Source: Paraglomus brasilianum (lineage: Eukaryota). From it: DNA of 20,000 nt. Below are positions 3,816-17,421 of the stretch, piece by piece. Below the pieces are notes generated by a model, which had not been told where the DNA came from, did not search any database, and saw only the letters and a list, made by a program, of their open reading frames with translations. Position numbers and translations under genes: made by a program. The DNA lies in NCBI GenBank assembly GCA_910592345.1, contig CAJVPI010000037.1, forward strand, positions 52,500 to 72,499, in the 5' to 3' direction. The number at the start of each line of letters is the position of its first letter. Within the stretch, counting starts at the first letter, position 1.

Positions 3816-6379
3816 TCATTTGTATCGCCATATGTTGTCAGATACTTTAACGACATCAACCATTTCCTTCACATCATGAACCCTCAATAAGTCAGCACCT
3901 CCAGAAATACAAGCAGTACAAGCAGCAGCAGTACCCATTACACGCGTCTCGGCGTCTGGTTTTTGAGTAACTGTTCCAATAAAGGTCTTCCTTGATGGTC
4001 CAACTAGACAAGGAAATCCCTCAAAAGGGCTATTTTCTCCTGTTATATCACGTAAACGACGCAATATTTCAAAATTTTGCTGCGCATTTTTAGCAAACCC
4101 AATACCTGGATCAATGATAATATTCCATCTCTTAACTCCTGCGCGAATCGCTCGTTCAACACGTTCACAGAGTTCATAACAGATATCTTCTATAAGATCA
4201 TCATATTGGGTCAATTCCCTCATGGTCTTTGGTGTTCCTCGAGTATGTTGAATACAAACAGGAACGTCCATACGTGCCATGACATCGTACATCCGAGGAT
4301 CCATCAGGCCGCCAGATATATCATTAATCATATCTGCTCCAGCAGCAATAGCAGCTTCGGCAACCGCTGCACGGAAGGTATCAATGGAAATAATCATATC
4401 CTTGTGTCCTTTTTCACGTATAGCCCGAATGACAGGGATAACCCGTTTTAATTCTTCATCCACTTGTACCTCGTCAGCATTCGGGCGCGTAGAATACCCA
4501 CCAATATCAATTATATCTGCTCCATCCAACGCAAGTTTCTCTGCATGAGCAATAGCAGTCTCAACAGTATTGAACAATCCGCCATCACTAAAACTGTCGG
4601 GTGTAACATTTAGCACACCCATAATAAATGTCTTATTACCCCAGGACCATTTGCTGTTTCTAATCGGCATGAACTTTTGCACCCCGTCTTCATTTGCCTC
4701 GTAATCAGGCGAGCCTACAAGCTGCGAGAGAAGTTGGTTACAAGTTCTGAATAATATTGGATGTTCAATGTCCCGAGCAATGCTATATGCAACAAAAAAT
4801 TGTCAAATATGTCGACATCTATGGAAGAGGATTACACTCGAAATAAGAATCATTAATAAGCTTACTCGTTCAATGGACGCAATACAAATTCGCGCTCACT
4901 TATACGAGGATGTGGAATAGTCAATGTTTCCGAGGTGTACTCGATGTTATCATAAAAGAGTATGTCAAGATCGATTATACGCGGACCATTTCTTATTAAT
5001 TCGACGCTGGACCGACCCATATCTCTCTCTATAGATTTCAGCCACTTAAGTAAACCCTCTGCGGACAGGCTTGTTGTTACCTGGTAAGATAATGTATGCA
5101 ATTCTTGTAAGACGACAAAGGCTTCTTGAAGATAAAGCGTTAGCGTATTGCGATTGTATTAAAAGTAATTCCTACGATAGAAAACAATGTCATGTGGGCT
5201 TTACCTTACATGCCGCGTTTACGAATCTGGGCTGATCTACATTATACATGGGCGAAGTATCATACAAAAATGAGGTATCTAGTACTTTACAGTTGTTGTC
5301 CTTCTCCAATAGTTGCAAGCTCTCCTTAATATTTGCTATACTATCACCTATATTAGATCCAAGGGCAAGAAAGGCGATGTGACCATCTTCCTCTGATAGC
5401 TTAGCATCATCAACAGAAACAGTGCAAGCAGACGCTCCATCGACTCTTTTCTTTAATTCAAAGCTTGCGCGATTCAGATACGGTAATACGAGATGTCGCA
5501 TCTTGTCTTCTAGCGAAAATGTAGTTCGGGTAATCTCTACTCCTGCAGAGCTAGCAAAAGTTATTGCATTAGGTTTCTCAACACGAACGGTTATCTTGTT
5601 AACATGGCATTCTGTCAAGGCTATATGTGCAGCTGCCGTGGTGCATGCCTCAATTGTCAAGTATTTAGACTCCTCAACGTGCTAAGTTCATTATAAATAA
5701 ATTCACTGTCAATAATGTGTTAGCGTTCTTCTCGAGCATAAATTCATCCTGATGATTTTTTACATTTTACCTGCGATATTTTTCGCGCGACCGTCTGATA
5801 GTCATATGGATTCGCGGTACCATCATTCTGGAGCGATTTCACACGAAATTGAGGATAAATTGTCAAGTTTAACACGACAACCTGCTTTTCCTCACGTTCC
5901 CATGGTCTCACACCTATTATCGTACTAAGCCTCAAGTCTTTCACAAACACAGTGTCATGATTCCTATGGATAGAGACGGGTAGCGCATCCAAATTGAAAC
6001 CAAGGGAAACATAATCCTCGGCACTTCGAGTTATTTCTACACCAGCTAACGCAGCATGAAGCAATGCTTGTAGTTTCTCGACGCGAACAGTAACTTTCGG
6101 AGCGTTGCAATCCTTAATGGATATCTTAGCAATACCTTCAGCTAATGCTTCAGCTGATTCATGAGATGTTTTTTCAGCAAATGCAGTGACCTCTTTACAT
6201 ACAGTAGAATAATTGATTGAAAATGGTAGACGATCAGTCTGACCAGCTTGACTAATATCCTTGTACAAAGCCAGATTAATAGTGACAGATTGCTTTTTTA
6301 CACGTCCCCAATAATCAGCCCCCAGTATAGTCCGTACGATCAAATCCTTAATTATTATCTTGTCATGCGAGGAATCCAT
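3816..6379 (-). CDS. FOL1: Trifunctional folate synthesis protein (2x dihydroneopterin aldolase + HPPK + dihydropteroate synthase), 4 exons, ~755 aa
   Basis: Exons 6379-5771, 5681-5205, 5080-4866, 4782-3816 (2268 nt, GT-AG introns). Two FolB repeats (DKIIIKDL..VEK, DTVFVKDL..VEKP), HPPK motifs (LALGSNIG, GPRIIDLDIL, LTIPHPRI) and DHPS motifs (MGVLNVTPDSFSDGG, IDIGGYSTRP, SIDTF, DPGIGF, GPSRK, LRVHDV). Confidence 0.96.
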
Positions 6380-6790
6380 GTTTGCTCAAAACGCGATTAT
6401 CTATTATCGTTTAAAATTTTTTAATCGGTTGATGGGTGGTACAACCTGACAGGTGTTACAACGACTATTACTACCAAAACTAGGAACTTCAGCAGATCAA
6501 CAAATATACGCCATGTCATCCAGAGAGGCATATTTGAATGTATCAACCCTTTTCGAAATCAGGTGCCTACCATCTCGATAGGATTGAACAACCATTTTCT
6601 GTTGGTAACCCGTAGTCGCAAATGATGCCCTTCAATCATTTTGTTCAACGAATAGTTCCATAAATAAGCACCTTATATGTACTGCGAACGGATGCTCTTT
6701 GAACGTTGTGTTACAGGAAACGTCATCATTTTATATTAATATATTAATATTGGTTGTTGCGCCATGTATTTTCCGTGTCAAGCAATTATT
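6380..6790. promoter_or_regulatory. Probable bidirectional promoter between FOL1 and the Bin3-family methyltransferase
   Basis: Only ~410 bp separates two divergent start codons. No specific element identified. Confidence 0.5.
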
Positions 6791-7942: not shown

Positions 7943-8201
7943 TTCCAGTATAAGTCACGTAGGAATAAAAAACAATAAATAAAACGAAAGGTTCCAACCT
8001 ACAGCACGAAATATCGTATTAGTATAATTTTAGTGTAAGGCAGTAGTTGGAATAAGCTATGAAAACAATCAAATTTAATTAGACAAACGCGAATTTTTGC
8101 GTATGGATTATCATTGGTCACATTCTGCATTCTGCATATAGTTACATTGTGAAAAAGTCTAGAAAGTTCCTAATAATACGTTATTAATTAAGCCAACTGA
8201 T

Positions 8202-8396
8202 CAGCGTTGGTATTACTATCGCGAGGAACTTTTATTCGCAGCGACAGCGTTGGTATTACAAGTGGCTCGCGATATAAGAAAGTGATCGGGACATAGTAAA
8301 AAATCTTAGAATCTTTCTTATACCGAGAGTTTATTAGAATCTTTCTTATATAGAGATAGTTTCATATAGACTATTTTTTAGATCAACTTTCTTATA
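8202..8396. repeat. Cluster of short direct repeats at the left edge of the accessory island
   Basis: CAGCGTTGGTATTAC at 8202-8216 and 8245-8259. TTAGAATCTTTCTTATA at 8306-8322 and 8334-8350, with a partial third copy CTTTCTTATA at 8387-8396. Confidence 0.75.
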
Positions 8397-8425: not shown

Positions 8426-9211
8426 AGCGAAACAGAAGATCCAACATTAGCAGTGTCCCACTTTTTTCGTGTGGTAGTATCGAACCATCGCAAGAAGTGT
8501 TTAAAAATCTCATGCTAGAGTCAAATTCACGACTCGACATCACTCCAATAAATCTGATATCAATCGAAGCCACGAAATCTATATACGTCTATTCATACCT
8601 CTGCTTGCTGGAGCGAATAATTTCAAAGATGTATTCGAGGTCCGCCCTCAAAAAAATCTTTCTGGTCCGAATGGACATGGTCCTGTTGATTTCGCAGGCG
8701 TTGTTTTATGCATGTGTTTTACCGGTTTTACGCGTGTGTTTTATGCCGTTCGTTTTATGCGTTCCTTTTTTTCTTTAACTGGAATTCGGTTTGGTAAATT
8801 TTGTAGCGAAAGCCCCCCGGCAACATCGACTTGCGTCGAACGGCAAAAACTGTGGGAGTCGCTGAGGTTAAGAAGGATAATTTCGTCAAGGGAGTTACCC
8901 AATGTGCGGTCCAGCTCGAGTCATCCTTGTCGAATCGTAAACGCAAGGCCAATGAGTTAGAAGAGAATCCGACAGTTGGAAAAGTTTTTGGGATAGTTAC
9001 CGACGCTGGGAAATTTTATTTCATGGAATGCTCGCTAGATGAACAGGAACGGCCCGCATTCAAGTTATCGAAACCGGTGATCGTTGCGTATGATGATGTT
9101 GACATGGAAGACAAGATAAAAAGGGTGTTTTCTCACATCGTATGGTTACTAGAAGAGATCCAAAAAGCGGACGAATTGGAAGGTGGAAATAAGAGAGTTA
9201 AGGTGAATTAG
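8426..9211 (+). pseudogene. 5'-truncated, frameshifted Crinkler-type (CR-REase, PD-(D/E)xK fold) gene remnant
   Basis: Pieces in shifting frames read ..PLFSCGS..VFKNLM..EATKSIYVYSYL / LAGANNFKDVFEVRPQKNLSGPNGHGPVDFA / IDLRRTAKTVGVAEVKKDNFVKGVTQCAVQLESSLSNRKRK..VFGIVTDAGKFYF..HIVWLLEE. GPVD..EVK..Q is a PD-(D/E)xK motif typical of Glomeromycota CRN-like proteins (recognised from memory). Frameshifts near 8456 and 8602, plus a 128-bp insertion. Confidence 0.82.
8697..8824. mobile_element. 128-bp insertion with five GTTTTAYNC-type repeats interrupting the nuclease motif
   Basis: Separates contiguous coding sequence (..GAT TTC GCA | ATC GAC TTG..) and shifts the frame. Contains gttttatgc, gttttacc, gttttacgc, gttttatgc, gttttatgc. 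Confidence 0.6.
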
Positions 9212-10367: not shown

Positions 10368-10783
10368 TTGATAAATTTAATAAGTGATTTTTTCTTTATG
10401 TAGATATTCCTCGAAAATTTTGGTATCATTGATTTTAAAACCATATGGAGCAGTTTTTCCTCCTTGAGCTTTCTTTAAAATGCTTCTAATAGTGCTGTAA
10501 TTCTTGGGTTCCATAGTGGATTTAGTAATTAGTTTCATATATTTATTTTTATAGACATGATCCTATATCGATATTAACATGGTCTTCACCGAGTTGAATG
10601 TTACTCATCATTACATTGTCATGACATAGTTCATGGGTTGTGCATGAGCCACAGCTGTGCCACTCTAGCAAAGCCTTCTCAAGACATCATCCACTACTTT
10701 ACATTTAGTGTCTGCTCAGCCACATCAGCCTCTTTTAGTTCACATGATCAAATGTTCACTTTGTCTGCAGTCTGCCCCAATTA
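10368..10783 (+). repeat. Unclassified dispersed element, copy 1 of 3 (ends TGCAGTCTGCCCCAATTA)
   Basis: Shares blocks with 13983-14283 (TCTTGGGTT..GTGGATTTA..AATTAGTTTCATAT, CAGCCACATCA, ATGTTCACTTTGTCTG) and with 17036-17202 (TTGATAAATTT..AAGTGATTTTTTCTT..TTTGGTATCATTGATTT). Strand is arbitrary. Confidence 0.8.
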
Positions 10784-11558
10784 CAGTCGAACCTCGTTAT
10801 ACCGAAGTGTCAGGGGAGGCATCCACGATTCGGTATAACGAGACATTCGGTATAGTGAGGTACCTCTATGTAACGAAGTTATGCCTAAGGTCAAGCAATA
10901 TTCGGTATAATGAGACTTATGTGAATAATATCTTTACTTCAATTTACAATCAATAATACGTGAATATAATAAAACAGTTATACTGATCAGTAACAAATGA
11001 ATCTATTAGAGTTTGTTTTTGCTTTGCAGGACTATGCAATTCCGCCTTTCTCTTTAACGCACGAAAGGCTTTAAATCATCATAATTAATTTCTATGTTAC
11101 CTTGTTGAAGAAAATATGGAAACTCACGTTGTAATTTGTTAATAAATTTCCAATTATATTTACGTCTCAACATTAAACGTATGACCGAAAATTACATGAT
11201 TGAACAATATGTGCGAATATCATAAACATGTTTACTGAATTTAAAAAGATGACAGCTGATATCATACGATCAAAATATTGGCACACAAATATGACGGCTA
11301 AATCGTACGATTAATATCAAATATCAGCGATTGCGAAATCGTATGATCCTCATCTGCTACAGCCAATCACTATTCTACATTTTTTATCACGTGATAAAAC
11401 TTCGGTATAACGCGATTAGTGCAATATGTAAAAATCCAGCATCGCACTTCGGTAACGGTATAAAGCGATTTTACTATTAAATTCGTTATAAAGAGGGAAT
11501 TTTACTATTTAGAAAACGGGGGGAGCCAGAATTCCTTCGGTATAACGAGGTTTGACTG
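10784..11558 (-). mobile_element. Non-autonomous pogo/Tigger-like (Tc1/mariner superfamily) DNA transposon, 775 bp
   Basis: 24-bp TIRs CAGTCGAACCTCGTTATACCGAAG (10784-10807) and 11535-11558 with one mismatch. TA duplication at 10782-10783 and 11559-11560. Subterminal TTCGGTATAA-type repeats at 10829, 10846, 10901, 11401, 11482. Minus-strand transposase C-terminal relic ..KQKQTLIDSFV at ~10990-11070. Confidence 0.92.
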
Positions 11559-11683
11559 TATATATCAAAATCACATTTTGCGGAGTAGTGGGTACATTGC
11601 TATTGTTCACCTGCTTTTATGCACGCAGCTAGAAAAGTATGCCTTGCATGATATTTAAAAAAAAAGTATCTATGCTTAGTTAA

Positions 11684-13320
11684 TCATTCAAGTTCCATAT
11701 CTGCGGGTAACCTCAGCACATCGCGAACAGTTTTTCCTTCTGTCCGTAGCACCTCACGATCCATTTCTTTCAATAATGCTTCTTGATTAGTCATCTCGGC
11801 CTGGTGGAAAACCAAGATTTGTTTGTAAAAAGAAGCATTTGAATATCAAAAATTGCCACATGTTTTAACCTAAAACTTACATGAAAGATGGACATCATTC
11901 GCAGAATGGCATTATACTTGCCACGACTACTGAACGTAAATGGCAGAACAGCCGTGGCGAGTTCAGTTGCAAGGAAGCGGCCATCTTCGAGCATATTCAT
12001 AGCATACAAGGTCATACGCGTCTCTGAAAGAGGGGAAAGAATGAGCAATCTAATAATATACATGATTCTGTATTCAGTCTCTTTATTAACAAAATTACAC
12101 ACCAATTACTTGAGTCGTGAAAACTTTCAAACGTGTTCCCAACTCAACTTTGCAGTCCAGATGGTCACGAAGAAGCATTACAAGGTTGAATATGTCAGTT
12201 CTGATTGTCTTTTTAGAGTCCCCGCAAGCGTGACGAGATGTGGAATTCCACGGTGGACCCGCTACTTCCATATGCCACACCTCACGATTATCTGAGAAGC
12301 GGGTACCCTTTGCGTCTAACTTTACGATGCCAGAATTTGATGAGGTCTTCATAATTTTTGGTGCACGGGCATGTGACTCTATCCACTCGAAAGACATTGT
12401 TGCAAAAGTTGTCTCGTAATATTTAAACAAGGGAGCGATATGATATGTAATGACGTGCGTTCACCGATATTCCTCGGCCTCGATGGACTGATGTCCACAA
12501 GATAGAAACTGTTATTTTTAAACACTTATAAGTATGTCACCTTATATTGTTGGCAGACTTTCAGCACAACTAGCAAAAAAAAACTAAAAGAAACCTACAA
12601 ATCAAGAAGCCAGCTGCCTTCCCACTGTCTCCTCGAGCTGCTGGATGGTCATGCCAAAAGCACAAATTAAAGGCAGCTTGTCTGTGAATCTGAGAGACAT
12701 GTACAATGGAAGGTTGAGTATCCATATTAATATTCAACATAGAATGCAAAACAATGCAACATAATGATGTACCGTTGGACGTTCTCATTCTCAAGTGGCC
12801 TTTTGTGAGGAGTTGTTAGTAGCACTTCTGTGGCCAACGGAATTGGGGGTGGTGTTGTCTCCCGTGATTTCTGTGCACTTTCATGGCAAAGTGGCCCGTG
12901 GTCTTCTTGAACTGTAGTTTCCACATTCTGTGAATAATTCTATGAATTGAAAGGTCAATTCAAGCTTGATAAAACAGAAATAGATAACAAATCAAATGAC
13001 AGTAGCACTTACAGCAGCAAATTTACGACCTCAGAATATTTAAGGTCTTGCGATTCAAAGATCTGCTTGATCTCAGGTCGCCTTTCAAATATTGTCTTGA
13101 TAGATGTAAAAAGTTTAAACGCTTTCCTGCGGGCGGCTTGAAGAGCGTTTGGGTCGTCAGCAATCATTCGTAACTTTTGCGTTATATGATCTTCTATTTC
13201 CGTTGCGCTTTCGCTGGAGAATTCGATATTCTCTGACAGATATCTCAGAATGTCCTCGACGTTCCATTTTGAATGGTTAACCGTTTGCAAATAATGTGCG
13301 ATCTCTTTTTCGAAATCCAT
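11684..13320 (-). pseudogene. Intron-containing PD-(D/E)xK nuclease-fold gene of a Glomeromycota-type uncharacterised family, probably pseudogenised
   Basis: N-terminus MDFEKEIAHYL.. (13320-~13025), TPPP/TPHKR linker (12924-12775), C-terminal domain ..FEWIESH..KLDAKG..D.REVWHMEVAGPP..GDSKK.. followed by clean spliced exons 12023-11881 and 11800-11684. The middle has in-frame stops at 12727, 12667, 12649 and 12595 and an apparent frameshift near 12452. Exon structure in 12500-12770 is ambiguous. Confidence 0.72.
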
Positions 13321-13416
13321 CTGTAAAATGTATATATTAGTAGAGAACACATTGGTTAGAGATATCTCAAAATGTAACGCCCCCCTCAAAGAGAAACTAA
13401 ATCTGAGTGAACTGGC

Positions 13417-13764
13417 TTGACATAGTGCTTTCTGGTAAATACTGGAAGGAGTATGCTACAGTGAGGATGTTTGTCGCAGGACAAACATGCGTCAAAGAGG
13501 GTATCCTCGCAATATCTACCAAGCATCGGCTGCATGGGGTCATCGCAAAACATTATTGTTTAGCTCGGCCAATGCAGAGGTAGGAAACACTATGTCCAAT
13601 ATACTAAAGACAAGACGGAGAGGTATGCTACAGTGAGGATGTTTGTCGCAGGACAAACATGCGTCAAAGAGGGTACTCTCGCACTCTTGTCTCTAAACAG
13701 CGAGCCGCAGGGGTCATCACTAAGCATGAATGCCTAGCTGTGCCATACGGTAAGCCGGATATTG
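13417..13764 (-). ncRNA. Tandem pair of ~172-nt structured RNA-like units of unknown class
   Basis: Identical 53-nt cores at 13451-13503 and 13623-13675. The flanking helices differ in sequence between copies but both pair. Several apparent A-C mismatches on + are G-U pairs on -. Expression is not shown. Confidence 0.65.
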
Positions 13765-13982
13765 TGTGCCGCCAGAAATAATCAGAGTTTTTTAACTTTC
13801 CTTCGTATACTGGTCGTGTACGTGAAGCCAGGAATGCGTCACACGGAAATGAACGCGAATTTTTTGACCATTACACAATCAGAATAATCTTGCCGATCAG
13901 TCGACCGCTGCTCCAAATATCGACATCACAATCTTTCTCGACAAAGCGACGCACAAATGAATCTGATGCGATGAGCTGTTAG

Positions 13983-14283
13983 TTTAAAAACATAAGGCAA
14001 TTTTCTCTTGGGTTTCATGGTGGATTTAATGTAAATTAGTTTCATATTAATATTTTTTATATAGAGGTAGTCCTATATTAATCACATTATGGTTTATATT
14101 TTTCACATTCTGGTATGATAAAGTGAAAATTAAAATTAAGTTATGAATGCACCATTATTGCTTTTCAAAAACGCCATCAGTCACACCTGGTCAATTTTAC
14201 AGCCACATCATAATCAGCAACTCATTTATGTCACATAATAAGATGTTCACTTTGTCTGGTTTTGTTGCAGTCTGCCCCAATTA
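13983..14283 (+). repeat. Unclassified dispersed element, copy 2 of 3
   Basis: Colinear similarity to 10434-10783 with indels. Same right boundary TGCAGTCTGCCCCAATTA (14266-14283). Confidence 0.8.
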
Positions 14284-14599: not shown

Positions 14600-17020
14600 A
14601 TGCACAAATGACGACTGCCGAGAAATCATGCCAATTTAATCATGTGATAAACATCAGGATGCTGATTAATTGTGTAGTACCAGGTTTAAACAGATCGAGG
14701 CTCTTTCATATGAATTTCTAGCTGCGCCCTGCAGGATGGATACAATAAATGTCTGAATGGATATTTTTTCTAAATAAGGGTTGAGAATAACTGAGCATAC
14801 GCAATGTGTACAAAATTCCCAAGACCTTTTTGGAATTACAAGACATGAAAACGGGTTCGATCAACCATTGCATATGCGATCATTTGGTTTCGCTCTATGT
14901 TTTATGGCAGCCAGTACTGGAAAGATCTGTCCGGACACAAAAAGTTGTTTCTGGAATGCAACATAGCTTTCTCATACTTGTTGTCAGGTGTAACATGAAA
15001 ACCACGCCCAACGAATTGATCATCGGATGATTCGCACGGTCATAATTACCCGCATTCTCCCAGTATTGTTTGCTCCCTTTTAGAAGTTATGCAACTGTAA
15101 ATATATATGACAATACAATCAATTTGGTTGGGCCGCTATATTGATTAATTGATTACTAATCCTTTCTTTAGGACGCTCACCGAGTTTTCTAAATCCGAAT
15201 CTCAACTGAACATGAACATGCTCATTTATAGCTTATGCTGCAAAATGTTGTTTGCAATGACCCCCCAATAATGACATAATATGGCCATTAGAGTCGAAAA
15301 CGTTGCAGTGCAACAGTATATAAGATAATATTTTTTAAATGAATCTGAAGAACTAATAACGTCCACAGATATGTTGGGTATTATAAAATTAAGCCACGCA
15401 ATTGACGCATTTGGTTGCGCTTACTAAAAACAATTTTTTTCTCCTTTGACCTTGAAACAGTATTAATTTGGTTTAGTGGATATTATTTCATTCCTTGTTT
15501 TGAACCAGTTAATAGGATCTCGCCGAAGGCTAGAATTCATCGAGTATTTGACAATCAGTATAACATGGGAGGCAATCATTTCACTCGAAGTTATCCTTTT
15601 TAGGTAGTCGGTGAAATGATACGGACCCGTATAATATAATTATTAAAAAGATAGCGGATTAATTCGCAGCTGGTTTTAATCAGGCTAGGAAATTAGCTAC
15701 AAATACTACACTTGGCCCATACCATGATAATTGATGCAAACTCTTAGTCAAGCTAATGTCGCGAAAGATGGGAGAATATTATCTCATCCAATTACGAAAC
15801 AATCCAGAGGTCACGCCTACTATAAAAGTTATTGTGAAATGTGAAGTTCTAATTTATAAAAATGGCGACAAAGTATTAGTTATATGTAATGCTTCCGGTA
15901 AAAGACGCGGCAATATACGACAATTGATATACTCTTATTCGAAATTTCCTATCTCCTGATAGTAACTTCTTCATTGGCGCCTGTGGCAAGGTTTACCATC
16001 TCGCTATCAATCTTGCTAAGGATGGTTTAAACAATACACGTTTGGGCCATTGTCTGTAGTGAGGGATTCTTCAGTATTTTGAACGCTTCCAACTGTGCCT
16101 TTATCTAACAACTAAAATAACGAAAACAGTCGATTTGGTAGAATATTTCGATTAATCGCAATTTACCTATAATTATTATTTCATCGTCTACATTATGATT
16201 GAAGCCTAGCTGGAATTGATTTCCGATGTACTTTTGGTCTCTTTCTAACACGCACATGGAATCCAGTCGCTTTTTGGTAAGCCAGCTAAAGACCGTTCTT
16301 ATTTTCAACCCACCAAAAAGTAAAACTGCAAATTCAGTCTCGTGTGCTTCATAATTTAAATAATGAGATTCAACAGGTTTACATAATTTGGTTCGTTTTG
16401 GAGACATTTCCTTGCGTTTAACCATGCCGAGGCAATATCCGTTGAACGTTAATTATTTTTGACTTAAAGTTATGTCCTGTTTATTTATTTGCGTTGGCTT
16501 TTTTTAGCCATCCCATATTTGCCGTGTCTGCTCCAACGCCAGTAAACGTTAACCTCTTTTTTTCTGAGAAACGATTCAACATAAGCGTCGACATGACGCA
16601 ATATTTGAATGTGACGTCAATTGAATGTCTAGCTTACGAAACGCAACGTCTGCTATTTTCCAAGACTATGGTTAACATTGTTGAGATTGAATATTTCTGT
16701 ATATTGTATGCAGCGTTGGGATGTTAACTTGCTTCAGAAATCAATAAATATCGTTGAAACAATACATCATAAAAGCAAATCTGTCAACTTTCACCAATAA
16801 CATTCTGCTTACGTATTCCTGTTTGGAGTATTGGCTTCATTCTCGGCCTATTGCTAAATGGCATAATTGCAATGGTCGGCTTAATAATATGAGCCTTAAT
16901 TCAAACGATGAAGTTACAACCCATAACCAGATATCGAACGATTTGAGACGAATCCAAAATTTTAACCATTGTTGCATCTACAATAAGAAATTTTTATCTT
17001 GGTTCATCCTAAGGTGGCAT
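14600..17020 (-). pseudogene. Possible heavily decayed coding relic(s) of unidentified family
   Basis: Protein-like minus-strand stretches broken by stops and frameshifts (ORF 16105-16425; YRQWPKRVLFKPSLARLIARW; YQEIGNFE*EYINCRILPRLLPEALH; AFQKQLFVSGQIFPVLAAIKH). No motif recognised and boundaries are approximate. Confidence 0.3.
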
Positions 17021-17035
17021 TAATGCTCGTTTATT

Positions 17036-17202
17036 TTGATAAATTTCACAAGTGATTTTTTCTTATCTAGATACTCCTCAAGGATTTGGTATCATTGATT
17101 TAAACATGAACATTTTTTTCATATCATTTTTAATCCTATAATGTCATCAGTCACTTTTGGTTTTTATCAAATGTTCGGCTTTGTTGCAGTCTGCCCCATT
17201 TA
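17036..17202 (+). repeat. Unclassified dispersed element, copy 3 of 3 (internally deleted)
   Basis: 17036-17105 matches 10368-10443. Ends TTTGTTGCAGTCTGCCCCATTTA like copies 1 and 2. Confidence 0.78.
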
Positions 17203-17421
17203 ATATTTATTAAAAATCGTTTAACTATCATCAGCTTATTTGACTGTGATATAGCATTTATTTTTATCGACAAATATTTATTACTCTACATATATAATCG
17301 TATTTGTACTTGTATTAATAGAGATTTTGTTTTTTGGTGCGAAAAGTTTCCATGTAATGTGAAGTATATATATAAGTAGTCGTCCAACAGTAGGCGGTGG
17401 TGGGGTGGGAGGATGCCAAGC

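Follow-up and report, generated by a model that had tools for sequence, protein, structure and literature searches.

A tandem structured RNA array beside a broken, predicted nuclease-fold gene of an arbuscular mycorrhizal fungus: a possible new class of self-cleaving RNA

Results

The locus and its nuclease-fold gene

We analysed a 20,000-nucleotide stretch of fungal DNA with introns (the window). Two ordinary host genes lie on its minus strand, one for a pyridoxal-dependent decarboxylase (723–2813; PF00282), the other for folate synthesis, its product having a pterin-binding domain (3816–6385; PF00809). A non-coding repeat of very high copy number, probably a non-autonomous transposon, is represented by three diverged pieces, at 14006–14283, 10502–10783 and 17036–17204. 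In addition, a MITE-like segment of 780 bp (10782–11560) is inserted at a TA; its terminal inverted repeats are 26 nt long and 96% complementary, and it contains internal copies of the repeat end. The features of main concern here, a tandem array of two structured units and the gene beside it, are listed in Table 1.

Table 1. Coordinates of the array, its parts and the neighbouring gene in the window.
Feature	Position	Strand	Description
Intron-containing gene of a Glomeromycotina family, predicted restriction-endonuclease fold	11684–13320	−	Homologue mapping and structure model; broken copy
Unit 2	13597–13764	−	5′ unit in minus reading; outer stem, arm B and arm A meet in a three-way junction
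Unit 1	13419–13596	−	3′ unit in minus reading; architecture as unit 2
Arm A core, copy 2	13623–13675	−	15+16-nt internal loop, 9-bp apical stem, 4-nt loop; 53/53 bases as copy 1
Arm A core, copy 1	13451–13503	−	Identical to copy 2
Arm B, unit 2	13705–13750	−	Basal helix of 5 bp, conserved internal loop, apical stem of 8 bp
Arm B, unit 1	13531–13576	−	5/5 basal pairs differ from unit 2 on both sides
Candidate whole RNA	13402–13786	−	Two predicted 5-bp helices enclosing both units, pair probability about 0.6
RNA-library contig span	13434–13842		Strand unassigned; near-identical contigs

The ATG of the gene lies at 13320, 97 nt downstream of the array. The original prediction, made from the sequence alone, had placed a co-oriented nuclease-fold gene about 100 nt from the array, and this agrees with our data in distance, in the fold predicted for the family and in the array's likely minus strand. 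Homologues align to exons between 13320 and 11696 on the minus strand, and the nearest named relatives (18 proteins, 47–62% identity) come from Racocetra, Diversispora, Ambispora, Funneliformis, Gigaspora, Paraglomus and Glomus. Exon 1 alone as the query found no homologue among the longer proteins; it was linked to the family via homologue P0064 (E = 4 × 10−9, among 165 proteins). At a cutoff of E up to 0.001, the family as a whole comprises 373 representatives. The copy in the window is broken: where the homologues have about 60 residues, it has only about 95 bases, interrupted by stops in every frame, and a frameshift lies near 12455.

Neither the nuclease exon nor five homologues had a Pfam match, and Foldseek with the homologue model found nothing at E up to 0.001. 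The fold was deduced from the structure model of homologue P0003 (pLDDT 86.6), which matched DrdV (Z 9.4, rmsd 3.7, 142 aligned), BpuSI (Z 9.3, rmsd 3.5, 156 aligned) and many further restriction-fold proteins, as well as a mitoribosomal protein (Z 10.1, rmsd 4.9, 210 aligned) that was tied with type IIG restriction enzymes. From this model, the family is predicted to have the PD-(D/E)xK, or restriction-endonuclease, core fold. Residues E28, D49, E65 and K84 (P0001 numbering) are invariant, and these acidic and lysine residues would fit nuclease activity, a match that is suggestive only. According to the available part of PMC5289972, Crinkler-related REase proteins are expanded in early-diverging fungi and linked to transposable elements. 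The gene described here is like them in its predicted REase-superfamily fold and its expanded fungal family, but has no Crinkler N-terminus, kinase or NTPase, and that part of PMC5289972 mentions no upstream structured RNA.

Architecture of the array

Two adjacent units of about 170 nt, each with an outer stem closing two internal-loop arms, had been proposed, and this architecture was borne out on the minus strand by folding and by a helix check. In the minus reading, the outer stems paired where predicted (9/9 in unit 1, 13419–13427 with 13588–13596; 6/6 in unit 2, 13597–13602 with 13759–13764), the lower helix and apical stem of arm A paired in each unit (12/12 and 9/9, respectively), and the two helices of arm B paired at 5/5 and 7/8 positions in unit 1 and at 5/5 and 8/8 in unit 2. 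The arm A cores, 172 nt apart, were indeed identical at every one of their 53 bases, and their apical stem is a perfect DNA palindrome. Both strands folded well, and the minus strand folded better in each unit: compared with 200 dinucleotide shuffles, z was −6.7 on the minus and −5.9 on the plus strand for unit 1, and −4.8 and −3.3, respectively, for unit 2. In a tiling scan of the window (113 tiles, 226 tile-strands), the two units took ranks 1 to 3, and one further tile equalled unit 2 at z −3.8.

The folding z for 13394–13793 was −6.8. In the predicted fold, two outermost 5-bp helices (13786–13782 with 13406–13402 and 13775–13771 with 13416–13412) may close both units into a single RNA of about 390 nt. 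A scan of the window with a covariance model built from both units found no third unit, and a tRNA search found none.

Compensatory changes and sense strand

The covariation set consisted of three variable helices (18 pairs) that stand in gap-free register with the conserved motifs in the unit-to-unit alignment; the 12-bp lower helices and the outer stems, which are fully paired in both units and out of register, were left out of the count. Eight of the 18 pairs were changed on both sides, three were changed on one side yet still paired, one was unpaired in one unit, and six were invariant. Pairing was kept at 17/18 in one unit and 18/18 in the other, though 20 of the 36 stem positions differ. 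When the partner strands were slid by 1–3 columns, pairing fell from 98% to 31–48%. In a neutral simulation with 20 of 36 positions randomly changed, the probability of keeping at least 17 pairs was 5 × 10−6, 1 × 10−4 and 1.6 × 10−3 at transition biases of 1, 4 and 10, respectively, values that somewhat overstate significance because the helices were chosen from the same two sequences. Arm B was said to keep its loops while its stems are swapped, and this is what we found: its loop strands are identical at 8/10 and 10/12 positions, and its basal helix is identical at 0/10 and fully paired.

The compensatory changes and the simulation, which rest on two paralogous units in one lineage, support the earlier claim of selection on RNA structure over neutral duplication, and it is highly probable that the fold is genuine and was formerly selected. 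Repeat-mediated exchange may account for the identity of the cores, and not every core base need matter. It is very unlikely that the array is a neutrally duplicated, self-complementary stretch, or a DNA hairpin or palindromic binding site that is incidentally transcribed. This reading would suit the good folding of both strands, the palindromic apical stem, the unconstrained look of the present-day alleles (see below) and a covariation drawn from two sequences only, but the number of pairs kept, the loss of pairing on sliding and the G–U pairs described next all speak against it.

In the variable helices, seven pairs are G–U on the minus strand and A–C on the plus strand, and the reverse case did not occur (0 pairs); note that the minus reading served to select these helices. 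In the plus fold, the conserved loops have U–G pairs at their edges, three of five stem alleles pair on the plus strand only, and a T6 run lies on the plus strand at 13788–13793, just past the outermost helix. Taken together, the sense strand is probably the minus strand. Pairing among the conserved strands does not exceed 4 bp, and no match of theirs elsewhere in the window is longer than 9 nt, which indicates neither a pseudoknot nor a local guide. Loops that stay conserved between freely replaced helices suggest a binding surface or tertiary core and are not what a programmable guide would show.

Searches for homologues and known RNA classes

Rfam 15 gave 0 matches in the window at the gathering threshold and 0 matches in 13390–13800 at E up to 10, so that the earlier observation, that the array could not be matched to the consensus of several known RNA classes, stood up. 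The hammerhead core consists of CUGANGA and GAAA around three stems; CUGANGA was absent from both strands of 13380–13870. An unbenchmarked descriptor of our own for the HDV-like nested double pseudoknot P1–P4 had 0 matches on either strand. Among the loop words of twister, twister-sister and pistol ribozymes, only GAGGG was present, on the plus strand, and the L4 words were absent. A pre-miRNA reading of arm A was rejected, given about 6 unpaired bases per 21-nt window of the predicted fold and an arm B left unexplained, as were resemblances to U2, U6, LSU rRNA, IRE, SECIS and K-turn elements, which were short or not kept in both units.

On neither strand did the two units share an H box or ACA box at equivalent positions. 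A C-box-like word is present in arm B at 13720 and 13546 on the minus strand (exact in unit 2), and the sole minus-strand CUGA that could serve as a box D partner is at 13785, outside the units. The array is thus like snoRNA clusters in its tandem paralogues, two internal-loop hairpins, abundant RNA and C-box-like word, but unlike H/ACA and C/D snoRNAs it has no D, H or ACA boxes at matching places, and an outer stem closes each unit. The available part of a fungal motif survey that includes an atypical snoRNA motif (PMC5640933) contains nothing resembling the array.

Exact-pattern searches, which miss diverged relatives, found no diverged homologue of the array RNA. Specifically, a three-motif pattern had 14 matches in metagenome contigs, namely 13 GC-rich chance matches and one near-copy (contig L035), and four patterns had 0, 27, 3 and 0 matches in viral contigs, none above 11 bits with the two-unit model. 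The nuclease protein matched nothing in the viral contigs, prokaryote genomes gave 0 matches for both the RNA pattern and the protein, and blastn against plasmids and phages returned short matches only (E 0.1–0.4). In open-access full texts, we found no published description of such an RNA in arbuscular mycorrhizal fungi.

Presence in RNA libraries

Sequencing runs were picked by words from 13000–13900. Of 24 runs listed, 20 contain part of this region, six of them being RNA runs, and we examined four of the six RNA and four of the 14 non-RNA runs. Note that the contigs carry no strand, ends or level. Near-identical contigs within 13434–13842 were present in all four soil metatranscriptome runs examined, which come from four studies. 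Six of the nine RNA-run records fell within this span, each with 0–1 differences; the other three comprised two short partial matches and a 159-nt nuclease-exon piece (one substitution, one gap). To control for DNA carry-over, we used the repeat at 14006–14283, whose summed depth was 34–2050 versus 3–8 for the array in DNA run X3, and 56–2300 versus about 10 in DNA run X5. In the RNA runs, this repeat gave a single 53-nt partial match. Given that such a high-depth repeat is nearly absent from the RNA runs, DNA carry-over is an unlikely source of the array contigs. The array is therefore very likely transcribed, as had been anticipated, on the evidence of strandless contigs in 4/4 RNA runs.

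In the four RNA runs, no contig lay over exon 1 or 13320–13433 and none bridged the array and exon 1, which is weak evidence as it concerns contig cover only. The missing bridge counts, to that extent, against a cis-acting 5′ leader, that is, a tandem ligand- or protein-binding switch that would control splicing, translation or decay of the nuclease mRNA and of which the RNA seen would be a stable fragment. Such a leader would accord with an array on the gene's likely strand, 97 nt from its ATG, and with an alternative 8-bp helix in unit 1 (13575–13568 with 13530–13523, probability 0.89) that competes with the covarying helix of arm B. However, the alternative helix is absent from unit 2 and no TPP or other riboswitch matched, and we consider a leader quite unlikely.

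The RNA contigs span arm A and arm B of both units unbroken (X15, 13446–13596 and 13651–13801; X17, 13594–13806; X18, 13434–13658), and this integrity across every arm speaks against fast cleavage. They extend beyond the T6 run in three of the four runs. In X16, one 169-nt RNA contig of depth 3 reads 13540–13451 and then 13622–13544. It joins 13622 to 13451, a distance of one 172-nt period, and its length is the period less 3 bases. Since a 151-nt read from the linear locus cannot yield this contig without a branch, it plausibly reflects a non-collinear molecule. Such a molecule could be a circle, a three-unit allele or a template switch, and an assembly path through the 53-nt repeat would explain the joint equally well. 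The reciprocal one-unit form, with mismatched stems, exists in the DNA of contig L035 and points to recombination or misassembly via the identical core. A 172-nt circle folds at −38.5 kcal/mol on the minus strand, far more poorly than either unit.

Copies of the locus and strain alleles

The depth of the array equalled that of exon 1 in DNA runs X5 and X6, indicating a low-copy locus. Run X2 contained a second copy of exon 1, about 90% identical, and a second contig over the array start at equal depth; the array start and exon 1 were thus duplicated jointly. Contig L035, a 99% identical copy, holds the array and exon 1, followed by unrelated sequence in place of the nuclease exons. On its opposite strand, this replacing stretch (L035 1–585) contains pieces of another open reading frame (ORF), with no Pfam match. 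All other loci found, L035 and the second X2 copy, are recent copies and none is independent. Where exon 1 ends (13028–13029), the window allele is shorter than that of run X6, in which about 130 further bases are present, and than L035, which has a similar extra stretch.

Among the differences listed, X6 had 5 in 348 array positions versus 5–7 in about 500 flanking positions, and X5 had 3 in 348 versus 2 in about 230. Array alleles are about as dense as flanking ones, and three of five stem alleles break a minus-strand pair. The strain alleles thus give no sign of present constraint on the array, which fits a decaying copy of a formerly selected element.

These data also bear on the reading that the array is an independent, abundant host ncRNA, either one of about 390 nt or two clustered ones of about 170 nt, whose loops would bind a protein or a conserved RNA, the nuclease gene being an unrelated insertion. 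Its presence in 4/4 RNA runs despite a low-copy locus, the uncut contigs and predicted helices closing both units, the plus-strand T6 run past the closing helix, as at a Pol III end, and the L035 array without nuclease exons would all agree with a host ncRNA. We nevertheless regard it as rather unlikely. The two units share no correspondingly placed H, ACA or C-plus-D boxes, the array has strain alleles that disrupt stem pairs and an allele density like that of the flanks, contigs from three of the four RNA runs continue past T6, and the array and exon 1 were duplicated together.

Discussion

The explanation that we favour, with a probability of about 0.3, is that the array belongs to a new self-cleaving class, as a tandem RNA with two docking loops per unit, and that the nuclease gene at whose 5′ end it lies is selfish and decaying. 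It ranks ahead of an independent host ncRNA, a nuclease-binding RNA, a regulatory leader and a neutral or DNA-level feature, in this order. In each unit, the two conserved internal loops would dock and so build a catalytic core, which would slowly cut its own transcript in the manner of ribozymes known from the 5′ ends of mobile elements. The array and the gene would then be one selfish element, of which the window holds a decaying copy. To our knowledge, new classes of self-cleaving ribozyme are rare.

Conserved loops amid replaced, still-paired helices are what is expected of a catalytic or binding core. As described in the available part of PMC8216279, the hairpin ribozyme has two loop-bearing arms on one junction and an invariant A22-A23-A24-C25 in its loop B, and hairpin ribozymes were found in RNA only, not DNA. 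The array units are similar in that two conserved internal loops sit on the arms of one junction with covarying stems, a likeness that favours self-cleavage; unlike in the hairpin ribozyme, AAAC is absent from the conserved loop strands on both strands, the word being present inside stems only. One plus-strand loop strand of the array agrees at 7/9 bases with the 3′ strand of hairpin loop B, with the partner strand missing.

As far as the available parts of PMC6765202 and PMC4209133 describe, ribozymes are common at the 5′ ends of endonuclease-encoding retroelements and in tandem there, some with very low cleavage rates; HDV-like ribozymes are found in the 5′ UTRs of R2 and L1Tc, and hammerheads in Penelope-like elements and retrozymes. 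The array matches these contexts as a tandem structured RNA 5′ of an endonuclease-fold gene, with possible monomer circles and, as in some of these ribozymes, a putative low activity, and this, too, argues for self-cleavage. It differs in having no hammerhead core or HDV-type fold, and its copies abut instead of flanking the element. By eye, no reverse transcriptase gene was found among the ORFs of the window, and no LTRs or target-site duplication of the array element were seen; the repeats at 10502–10783, 14006–14283 and 17036–17204 were considered as its LTRs and rejected as a separate, very high-copy repeat.

Self-cleavage within a mobile element is further favoured by the joint duplication of the array start and exon 1 in X2, and by the flank-like allele density and broken stem pairs, which suit a decaying mobile copy, not a housekeeping gene. 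The joint in X16 is what would be expected of a circle cut and joined within both cores. On the other hand, that joint is a single depth-3 contig and is equally explained otherwise, given the reciprocal one-unit DNA form in L035, and the 172-nt circle folds much worse than the units. The contigs of X15, X17 and X18 cross both arms of both units intact, and the array has no catalytic motif of a known class. In addition, with no reverse transcriptase ORF and with introns in the gene, the usual purpose of ribozymes in retroelements is missing.

Another reading is that the RNA binds the nuclease as an antitoxin of type III-like character, a scaffold or a guide, its two domains serving a dimeric enzyme. 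Type III toxin-antitoxin systems (ToxIN, AbiQ) are bacterial and combine short pseudoknotted repeats of 34–46 nt with an endoribonuclease toxin. The array is like them as a tandem structured RNA directly 5′ of a nuclease-fold gene; its conserved loops would suit a protein surface, and the mitoribosomal protein among the best fold matches suggests that the fold occurs RNA-bound. However, units of about 170 nt far exceed those antitoxin repeats and form junctions without a pseudoknot of the conserved strands, and the gene has a predicted restriction-type fold whose closest nuclease matches are DNA restriction enzymes. Constant loops with variable stems are the opposite of a programmable guide, and no target longer than 9 nt is present in the window. 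A nuclease-binding RNA is accordingly unlikely.

We tentatively consider that arbuscular mycorrhizal fungi may have a selfish element composed of a restriction-type nuclease and its own undescribed RNA, which would be either a ribozyme releasing a 172-nt circle or an antitoxin or scaffold. The antitoxin or scaffold version, if true, would be a type-III-like RNA–nuclease system in a eukaryote, and any RNA that works with a restriction-type nuclease would be interesting as a control element or guide. Even if non-catalytic, the array represents an RNA motif that Rfam 15 lacks and that a mycorrhizal fungus very likely transcribes, and its two divergent natural copies already flag nucleotides that matter.

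Two further places in the window may be mentioned. At 15520–15694 on the minus strand, where Rfam had no match at E up to 1, a tile folded with z −3.8, falling to −2.1 on a wider span. On the plus strand, 8505–9211 is a second nuclease-like gene fragment, judged by its resemblance to nucleases and with no Pfam match; upstream of it, 8170–8344, which did not match the array model, contains short repeats and a hairpin with z of about −3.2.
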